Of a stretch of 64,000 bases of DNA, positions 58,559-58,679 are shown in pieces (position 1 is the first letter of the stretch; every line of letters starts with the position of its first letter). Position numbers and translations under genes: made by a program. The notes beneath the pieces are model-generated. The model saw only the letters and a list, made by a program, of their open reading frames with translations. It was not told the origin of the DNA and did no database searches. The stretch comes from a virus. Where the stretch lies: positions 1-64,000 of the IMG/VR virus record IMGVR_UViG_3300009085_000002; one strand, written 5' to 3'.

Positions 58559-58586
58559 AATAGTCTAGTATTTCTACTAGACTATT
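58559..58586 (-). terminator. 12-bp perfect hairpin with GAAA loop
   Basis: AATAGTCTAGTA-GAAA-TACTAGACTATT on the minus strand. Confidence 0.65.
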
Positions 58587-58596
58587 ATTACACAAT

Positions 58597-58650
58597 TTAA
58601 CAACCTCCGCCACCTTTAGGTTTCTTTGGTTTCTTAGGTTTTTTTGCCAT
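58597..58650 (-). CDS. 17-aa Lys/Pro-rich peptide MAKKPKKPKKPKGGGGC
   Basis: ATG...TAA open frame with varied synonymous codons; upstream TATATTTG (58672-58679) and downstream hairpin. Confidence 0.65.
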   Translation of the reverse strand: MAKKPKKPKKPKGGGGC

Positions 58651-58679
58651 AATTAATATAAATTTAGATGCCAAATATA

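Follow-up and report, generated by a model that had tools for sequence, protein, structure and literature searches.

Within the first 64,000 nucleotides (nt) of the viral genome recorded as IMGVR_UViG_3300009085_000002 in IMG/VR (88,965 base pairs (bp), 26.0% GC), here called the window, a minus-strand open reading frame (ORF) of only 17 codons plus TAA (58597-58650; ATG at 58650, stop at 58599-58597) resembles the genome's own genes. This micro-ORF encodes MAKKPKKPKKPKGGGGC, in which the original prediction had recognized a (KKP)3-K core, four glycines and a terminal cysteine, all of which we find in place. The in-silico case for a gene is strong and comes from the start context, the codon usage and the spacing to a promoter-like box and a downstream hairpin, so that the gene-like frame first proposed for this locus stands. 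We consider it probable that the micro-ORF is translated and, more tentatively, we favour the reading that it is a real micro-gene whose product would be a functional cationic peptide able to bind nucleic acids. Coordinates refer to the window; positions beyond it are given on G000.

Gene-like signals of the micro-ORF

Start-context and codon models were trained on the genome's own genes with the micro-ORF left out. Scored with a matrix built from 75 gene starts (positions -20 to +12, the first three codons included), the context of the ATG at 58650 lies above 88% of those starts and is reached by 0.4% of 2,750 ATGs, and the codon log-odds of the micro-ORF exceed those of 81-93% of 1,372 real 16-codon windows and are reached by 0.2-1.1% of 444 small ORFs. 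A further test combined two signals that were kept independent of each other, the 20 upstream bases alone and, per codon, the score of the frame relative to the better off-frame model, and used 641 ATG-started ORFs of 10-44 codons for comparison. The micro-ORF falls in the top 1.1% for upstream start context and in the top 0.3% for the frame score, ranks first of the 641 and is the sole ORF that reaches its own values on both signals. Its length by itself is unremarkable in this genome, and the ORF list also carries a longer, TTG-started form of the same frame (25 amino acids (aa); the ATG form has 17).

The codons of the micro-ORF (ATG GCA AAA AAA CCT AAG AAA CCA AAG AAA CCT AAA GGT GGC GGA GGT TGT TAA) show the synonymous variety that had been described for them (CCT/CCA, AAA/AAG and GGT/GGC/GGA), and GGC makes up only 5% of the glycine codons across the genome's long ORFs. 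With seven lysines and no acidic residue in 17 aa, the encoded peptide is short and strongly cationic. Its codons contain three and a half units of a 9-nt repeat (AAA AAA CCT / AAG AAA CCA / AAG AAA CCT / AAA GG) whose differences are confined to third codon positions and are, every one, synonymous; the support that they lend is weak because only two to four events are involved. This frame apart, the six-frame translation has no K/P-rich window of 12 residues, and the genome contains no second copy of the micro-ORF region. There are ten G-rich 15-mers (at least nine G) in the genome, and seven of the nine others are glycine-rich coding sequence on the sense strand; the run in the micro-ORF, which reads GGT GGC GGA GGT when counted from the ATG, is the only intergenic one that reads as in-frame glycine codons. 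Two ways of extending the product were rejected: read-through of the stop codon, as three further stops come immediately after the TAA, and a frameshift on the A7 run, as the shifted frame reaches a stop after two codons.

The ATG lies 21 nt past a perfect -7 box, TATATTTG (58672-58679, minus strand; extended form TAGTATATTTG), which fits the TAnnTTTG of the Bacteroidota-type sigma promoter consensus, -33 TTTG / -7 TAnnTTTG. A family of eight strong promoters in this genome carries TTTG or CTTG 19-20 nt ahead of TAnnTTTG (window 5857(-), 5936(+), 9989(+), 17500(+), 24765(+), 36414(+) and 61252(-); G000 78090(-)); five of the eight are located within the structural module, and at six of the eight (5936, 36414, 78090, 17500, 61252 and 24765) an ATG follows 4-29 nt past the box. 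The TAnnTTTG motif occurs 135 times in the genome, 20 of them within the non-coding 6.4%, and the only other copy of the 11-mer TAGTATATTTG, at 17497-17507, stands ahead of a 391-aa gene, itself followed by the gene for the major head protein. By analogy, transcription of the micro-ORF unit would fall to the host enzyme.

Downstream, the hairpin announced by the original prediction is present as a perfect 12-bp inverted repeat with a GAAA loop, AATAGTCTAGTA-GAAA-TACTAGACTATT (58559-58586, minus strand; -14.1 kcal/mol). It starts 10 nt past the micro-ORF stop and ends 18 nt before the ATG of the next gene, with an A/T-rich spacer in between (58541-58558, minus strand), so that 56 nt, hairpin included, separate the TAA from that ATG. 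Box, micro-ORF and hairpin together fill a gap of 139 nt between an upstream gene of 120 aa (58680-59042, minus strand), whose TAG stop abuts the -7 box, and a downstream gene of 104 aa (58226-58540, minus strand; MARKRS... in the ORF list). Four other minus-strand gaps also have a hairpin 17-19 nt before the following ATG, and the spacing from stop to hairpin is 10 nt at two of these genes and 35 and 46 nt at the other two, whereas the distance from the stop of the 120-aa gene to the hairpin, 93 nt, is the longest of the set. Because the 10-nt spacing is that found at real genes, the layout treats the micro-ORF like a gene. The hairpin itself is an ordinary weak-tailed intercistronic hairpin, one of a class on the minus strand.

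The 160-nt region folds with a z-score of -3.5 (none of 200 shuffled sequences was as stable), an effect that is mostly due to the hairpin. The A/C-rich repeat is unable to pair with itself and is mostly open in the predicted folds, with weak pairing to the G-run in the centroid structure, and a scan of 57500-59800 with Rfam 15 gave no matches at E up to 1. A second perfect palindrome, with 13-bp arms and a 4-nt loop (-14.7 kcal/mol), was observed beyond the window at G000 68708-68737 (L067 4708-4737), between the 172-aa and 397-aa genes of a ThiF-containing operon; like the micro-ORF hairpin, it is separated by 10 nt from the preceding stop and by 18 nt from the following ATG.

Short (KKP)n frames in other lineages

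Analogues were sought by pattern scans back-translated from the peptide. The pattern KPKKPKGG was found at 19 IMG/VR loci, MAKKPKKPK at nine IMG/VR loci, and MAKKPKKPKKPK at two loci in species genomes and three in JGI metagenomes; (KKP)3K gave more than 118 stretches, from which 80 loci were kept. Four independent lineages contain complete (KKP)n ORFs of 13-22 codons, each with its own Shine-Dalgarno sequence. In two unrelated lineages, with head proteins of phrog_212 and phrog_3437, ORFs of 13-14 codons are found next to the head genes. The first of these, MA[KR]KPKKPKGG[MV]K, is present at six loci (L005, L008, L012, L015, L017 and L018), 2 nt past a scaffold-like gene and with a stop that runs into the ATG of the gene for the major head protein; its variants keep the frame (four synonymous changes, K>R and M>V), and the L015 copy, with the peptide MAKKPKKPKGGMK, comes from an isolate genome record. 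The second, MPKKPKKPKKPKGY (L112 and L143), has an ATG that overlaps the stop of a protease-like gene, with the gene for the major head protein 190 nt further on. The third, the 17-codon (KKP)4 ORF MAKKPKKPKKPKKPKSY (L026 1681-1734), ends in a TAG that overlaps the GTG of a Peptidase_M15_3 endolysin gene. The fourth, the 22-codon K/P ORF MAKKPKKPKKPKTPKKPKNTQQ (L062, minus strand, ATG at 317 of the reverse complement; L066 6363-6431), stands by itself, equipped with TATAAT, GGAGG and a canonical terminator, and was found in an Anaerolineales metagenome-assembled genome and in a metagenome contig; the two copies are uninformative on selection because they are identical over ~670 nt.

Like the micro-ORF of the window, these ORFs have 13-22 codons, with M-A or M-P before a (KKP)2-4-K core that is followed by G, S or T and one to four residues, and they have translation signals of their own, to which L062 adds a promoter-like box and a terminator. 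Unlike it, they belong to hosts that use Shine-Dalgarno sequences, at a GC content of 44-61%; all but one of the four touch or overlap the gene beside them, and none ends in Gly4-Cys. That complete, signal-bearing ORFs start with M-A or M-P at the repeat, and that two of them stand beside head genes, is not imposed by the search pattern.

The favoured reading and its rivals

From these features we infer a course of events that would run from transcription start to function as follows. Host RNA polymerase would start a few bases past the -7 box (58679-58672), and Bacteroidota-type ribosomes, which make no use of Shine-Dalgarno sequences, would load on the unstructured A/T-rich leader and initiate at the ATG at 58650. 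Translation would stop at the TAA, 10 nt ahead of the stable hairpin, which would mark or protect the 3' end of a short and abundant transcript, while some transcription would continue into the 104-aa gene. After removal of the methionine, the product (synthetic form AKKPKKPKKPKGGGGC) would consist of ~16 residues, with seven lysines, a Gly4 spacer and a C-terminal cysteine. Its composition, together with the head-gene context of the analogues, suggests that it could bind a polyanion electrostatically and serve as its counter-ion or condense it; the polyanion would most probably be phage DNA. The thiol of the peptide could join two peptides, or a peptide to a protein, under oxidising conditions. 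The original prediction had named a DNA-condensing peptide, a disulfide-attached tag on virion proteins and a modified peptide as examples; each of these roles is conceivable, with the (KKP)n micro-ORFs beside major head protein genes in two unrelated phage lineages as their one, indirect, support.

A more speculative extension, which we hold to be improbable, is that (KKP)n micro-peptides form an unrecognised class of phage counter-ions, invented repeatedly, that would enter the head with the DNA, and that the Gly4-Cys end would here serve as a redox switch. In the reducing environment of the cell the peptides would stay monomeric, and in the released, oxidised particle they would form disulfide dimers of doubled charge, or peptide-protein links; such links would lock the condensed DNA and would be reduced again upon injection. 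In the protamines of sperm chromatin, cysteines act likewise as a redox lock. In a bolder variant, E1/JAB enzymes encoded by the phage itself would trim the GG-Cys end and make use of it.

A number of results weigh against a functional micro-gene. The scores of the lysine codons are inflated because the sequence is low in complexity and A-rich in a genome of 26% GC. At the spacing at which the strong promoters have their -33 element the locus reads TTACTTA and contains no TTTG (alignment with the eight strong sites puts CTTA at 58700-58703, minus strand), and a position weight matrix made from those sites gives the micro-ORF site 3.5, as compared with 17.9-26.0. It is only 21st of 177,842 positions, far under the strong sites, because CTTA replaces the -33 TTTG; of the promoter proposed for the unit, the perfect -7 box with an ATG at close range is supported and the -33 element is not. 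The hairpin is stable but has just three G-C pairs among its 12 perfect pairs, and its tail shows four T in the first eight bases, short of a T-run, as compared with seven T in eight at the operon-end terminators 55652-55673 (minus strand) and 4897-4924; a terminator consensus scan did not call the hairpin at 58586-58559. The proposal that it serves as the unit's own terminator is not supported, given these points and its membership of the intercistronic class. The self-contained unit of the original prediction is in this way partly upheld: its gene-like frame is supported, a private terminator and a complete promoter are not.

The analogues are themselves subject to reservations. Their likeness in the KKP core was imposed by the search pattern, and common descent of the (KKP)n micro-ORFs is for that reason not shown. 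Among the matches listed, 52 of 83 (KKP)3K contexts lie in ORFs of more than 60 codons, and the motif is internal in 33 of the 41 contexts that have a start codon. The head context of the analogues is inapplicable here because the micro-ORF lies in the replication module and not in the head module: its neighbours are polA, a RusA-like gene and DUF932, and a polycation function is weakened by this place among replication genes.

The searches for relatives and for expression count on the same side. No homologue of the micro-peptide or its region was found, exact MAKKPKKPKKPKGG had no match in JGI metagenomes, blastn of the 160-nt region against phages gave chance-level matches only, and searching the phage collection at the DNA level, for close as well as remote matches, returned nothing for the region. 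The search for K-rich micro-ORFs ending in G(2-4)C that had been suggested as a check, run as KGGGGC followed by TAA only, came out empty, with no K-rich micro-ORF in 34 IMG/VR loci. Both flanking genes are ORFans. In three distant relatives, reached through an alignment of the RusA-like protein, the region is absent, and none of the three records contains KKPKKP. No RNA sequencing runs that contain the stretch were listed. Two DNA runs were: X1 contains all of it and may be where it came from, and the pieces listed for X2 comprise a 460-nt contig on 59133-59592 and short pieces of low likeness, none of which bridges the micro-ORF. As a separate observation, 14 of the 34 loci in the KGGGGC scan (L029, L031, L034, L036, L038, L040, L041, L046, L050, L051, L052, L055, L059 and L060) encode a conserved 58-aa protein ending in ...WFKGGGGC, with the terminal Gly4-Cys kept in all 14; its gene lies mostly within ~200 nt of the end of a ~13.6 kb contig.

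The rival that survives best, which we regard as rather unlikely, is that there is no gene at all. The frame would be open by chance, or would be what remains of the 5' end of a gene since lost, its repeats would come from slippage, and the real content of the gap would be a promoter that serves the downstream genes and an intercistronic hairpin. An open frame of this size asks for little explanation, as ~8.6% stops per triplet (estimated from 26% GC) leave 17 codons open after about one in five ATGs, and 39 small ORFs are situated in intergenic DNA; yet chance would also have to produce the top scorer among 641 small ORFs, by two signals that were trained without it, as well as the one intergenic G-rich run with in-frame glycine codons. 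A truncated N-terminus is conceivable, since MAKKPKKPK also opens longer proteins elsewhere (47, 95, 182 and 247 aa), and the searches for homologues and RNA runs have given evidence of neither conservation nor expression. However, the spacing from stop to hairpin is that of real genes, and without a gene 95 nt of sequence would be spare, which is rare in compact phage genomes; the other hairpin gaps have 10-46 nt ahead of the hairpin.

It is also possible, and in our view unlikely, that the micro-ORF is translated as a regulatory leader for the 104-aa ORF and those that follow, the peptide itself having no task. The promoter at 58679 would serve the downstream genes, and efficient translation of the micro-ORF would keep the 5' region open, protect the RNA or tune read-through at the hairpin. 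Read-through into the 104-aa gene is indeed likely because of the weak T tail, the intercistronic class of the hairpin and its position 17-19 nt (here 18 nt) before the next ATG, and a sub-operon may begin with the micro-ORF unit as its first cistron. The A/C-rich repeat, which cannot pair with itself and stays mostly open, would suit such a role, and two of the analogue lineages have a stop that overlaps the next start, one of them also containing the Shine-Dalgarno sequence of the next gene, an arrangement typical of translational coupling. At the micro-ORF, however, the geometry for translational coupling is lacking: we rejected it because the stop does not lie next to a start, 56 nt and the 12-bp hairpin being in between. 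Classical attenuation with a leader peptide was rejected because no alternative pairing competes with the hairpin (the best competing duplex has -3.5 kcal/mol, the hairpin arms -13.9), so that no antiterminator matches its stability. Four glycine codons of rare composition and a cysteine would moreover be superfluous in a mere leader, and the exclusively synonymous differences between the repeats point to the peptide.

A further rival, very improbable in our estimation, concerns the hairpin only and is compatible with the other readings: the 28-bp perfect palindrome would be the DNA site of a dimeric protein, an operator or roadblock, with the micro-ORF in the regulated leader. The palindromes at 58559-58586 and 68708-68737 are two of the genome's three perfect inverted repeats with arms of at least 11 bp, they have identical 10-nt and 18-nt spacings to their flanking genes, and they share the 8-mer ATAGTCTA, four of whose eight occurrences in the genome (both strands) are in these palindromes; but the shared 8-mers are opposite in orientation and differently spaced in the two, and unrelated hairpins at the equivalent position in other minus-strand gaps fit a role in RNA. 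A candidate for the binding protein seemed to be offered by the 104-aa neighbour, whose Atlas model resembles winged-helix regulators with template modelling (TM) scores of 0.35-0.47, values that are unreliable below 0.5. The AlphaFold2 (AF2) model of the same protein (helix, strands, helix; mean predicted local distance difference test (pLDDT) score of 50) has a shape unlike a winged helix, and on both grounds a winged-helix identity was dropped.

Should the peptide favoured here be made, few phage genes equipped with their own promoter-like box would be as short as this one, which standard gene callers would plausibly miss, as had been predicted, because the frame is so short. Such a gene would hint at a class of tiny polycations that arose independently in unrelated phages, twice beside the major head protein gene, and would bear on the old question of how the charge of DNA is neutralised within tailed-phage heads. 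If the micro-ORF is untranslated, the locus would still be a good benchmark, as the best-scoring small ORF of its genome.

Genomic setting and comparison with known systems

The source genome, a single contig whose initial 100 bases are repeated at position 88842, has PHROG matches for portal, major head protein and large terminase. Its head protein is ~31% identical to the counterparts in cr106_1, PhiCrAssBcn phages and Kehishuvirus, and a search with it matched 121 records, including crAss-like phages of Flavobacterium and Cellulophaga. Because of these PHROG matches and the similarity of the head protein, the genome is classified by sequence as a distant member of Crassvirales (a crAss-like phage), in agreement with the context that the original prediction assumed. 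The order on the minus strand is polA (split by a LAGLIDADG gene), the RusA-like gene of 176 aa, the 120-aa ORFan, the gap with the micro-ORF, the 104-aa ORFan, a 56-aa ORF, a phrog_4019 gene and DUF932. The C-terminal part of the family A DNA polymerase (59576-61221; 6.9e-60) comes directly after the LAGLIDADG endonuclease gene.

The 104-aa protein matches only itself among 5.8 billion proteins, and the 120-aa protein had no result in Atlas. Neither has a Pfam or PHROG match, no IMG/VR relatives were found for these two proteins or for the polA fragment, and the idea that the two flanking proteins are paralogues was rejected (E 0.72). The RusA-like protein has five homologues at 30-63% identity, with P0003, P0004 and P0005 at 46-63%. 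In the distant relative L001, the RusA-like gene is followed immediately by an operon that ends in an E1-like gene and resembles the ThiF/JAB operon of the present genome.

Other features of the window were observed in passing. A bidirectional terminator with 8-bp stems (55652-55673) lies where the plus-strand structural and minus-strand modules converge, with T in seven of the first eight tail bases on the minus strand and in five of eight on the plus strand. Two long gaps are free of ORFs, one at 3514-3724, with a predicted fold of -48.9 kcal/mol, and one of 507 nt at 9920-10426, downstream of the strong promoter 9989(+); by analogy with phi14:2, for which highly transcribed intergenic regions have been reported, both may be non-coding RNAs. 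Between two terminator-like hairpins, a hydrophobic ORF of 29 codons, MKTLEISATIFYSIVFVASLAVIAINLIG (4974-5063, minus strand), is likely a small membrane protein below the usual limits of gene callers.

Several known systems can be compared with the micro-ORF. Leader ORFs for translational coupling are the natural counterparts of synthetic bicistronic designs. They are, like the micro-ORF, short, A-rich and efficiently started ORFs upstream of another gene, but they need a stop beside the next start, where the micro-ORF has an intervening stretch with a hairpin. In sulfur-carrier and ubiquitin-like proteins, residues past Gly-Gly are trimmed by JAB/JAMM peptidases, as illustrated by QbsE, which ends in GG-CF, and by the CysO-Cys adduct. 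The ...GG-Cys C-terminus of the micro-peptide is reminiscent of them, and its genome encodes a ThiF-family E1-like protein (8e-15) next to a protein of 360 aa that matches Prok-JAB weakly (below the cut-off), the two genes lying at G000 65754-67496 (L067 1754-3496). These genes are 7-8 kb from the micro-ORF, neither adjacent to it nor linked with it in an operon, and the beta-grasp fold of the carrier proteins is impossible for 17 low-complexity residues.

Peptides that are small, cationic and associated with viral DNA are a known kind. The literature searched contained neither a crAss-like phage with such a gene of 17 codons standing by itself nor recurrent (KKP)n micro-ORFs. Protein J of Microviridae (24-38 aa) and adenovirus Mu (~19 aa) are small basic peptides that are packed with the viral DNA and thought to neutralise its charge. 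Like them, the micro-peptide would be very short, strongly cationic and without a fold of its own; unlike it, and with no relation in sequence, J and Mu are encoded among morphogenesis genes and their products are found in virions, whereas the micro-peptide is known from sequence alone, belongs to the replication module of a tailed crAss-like phage and ends in Gly4-Cys.

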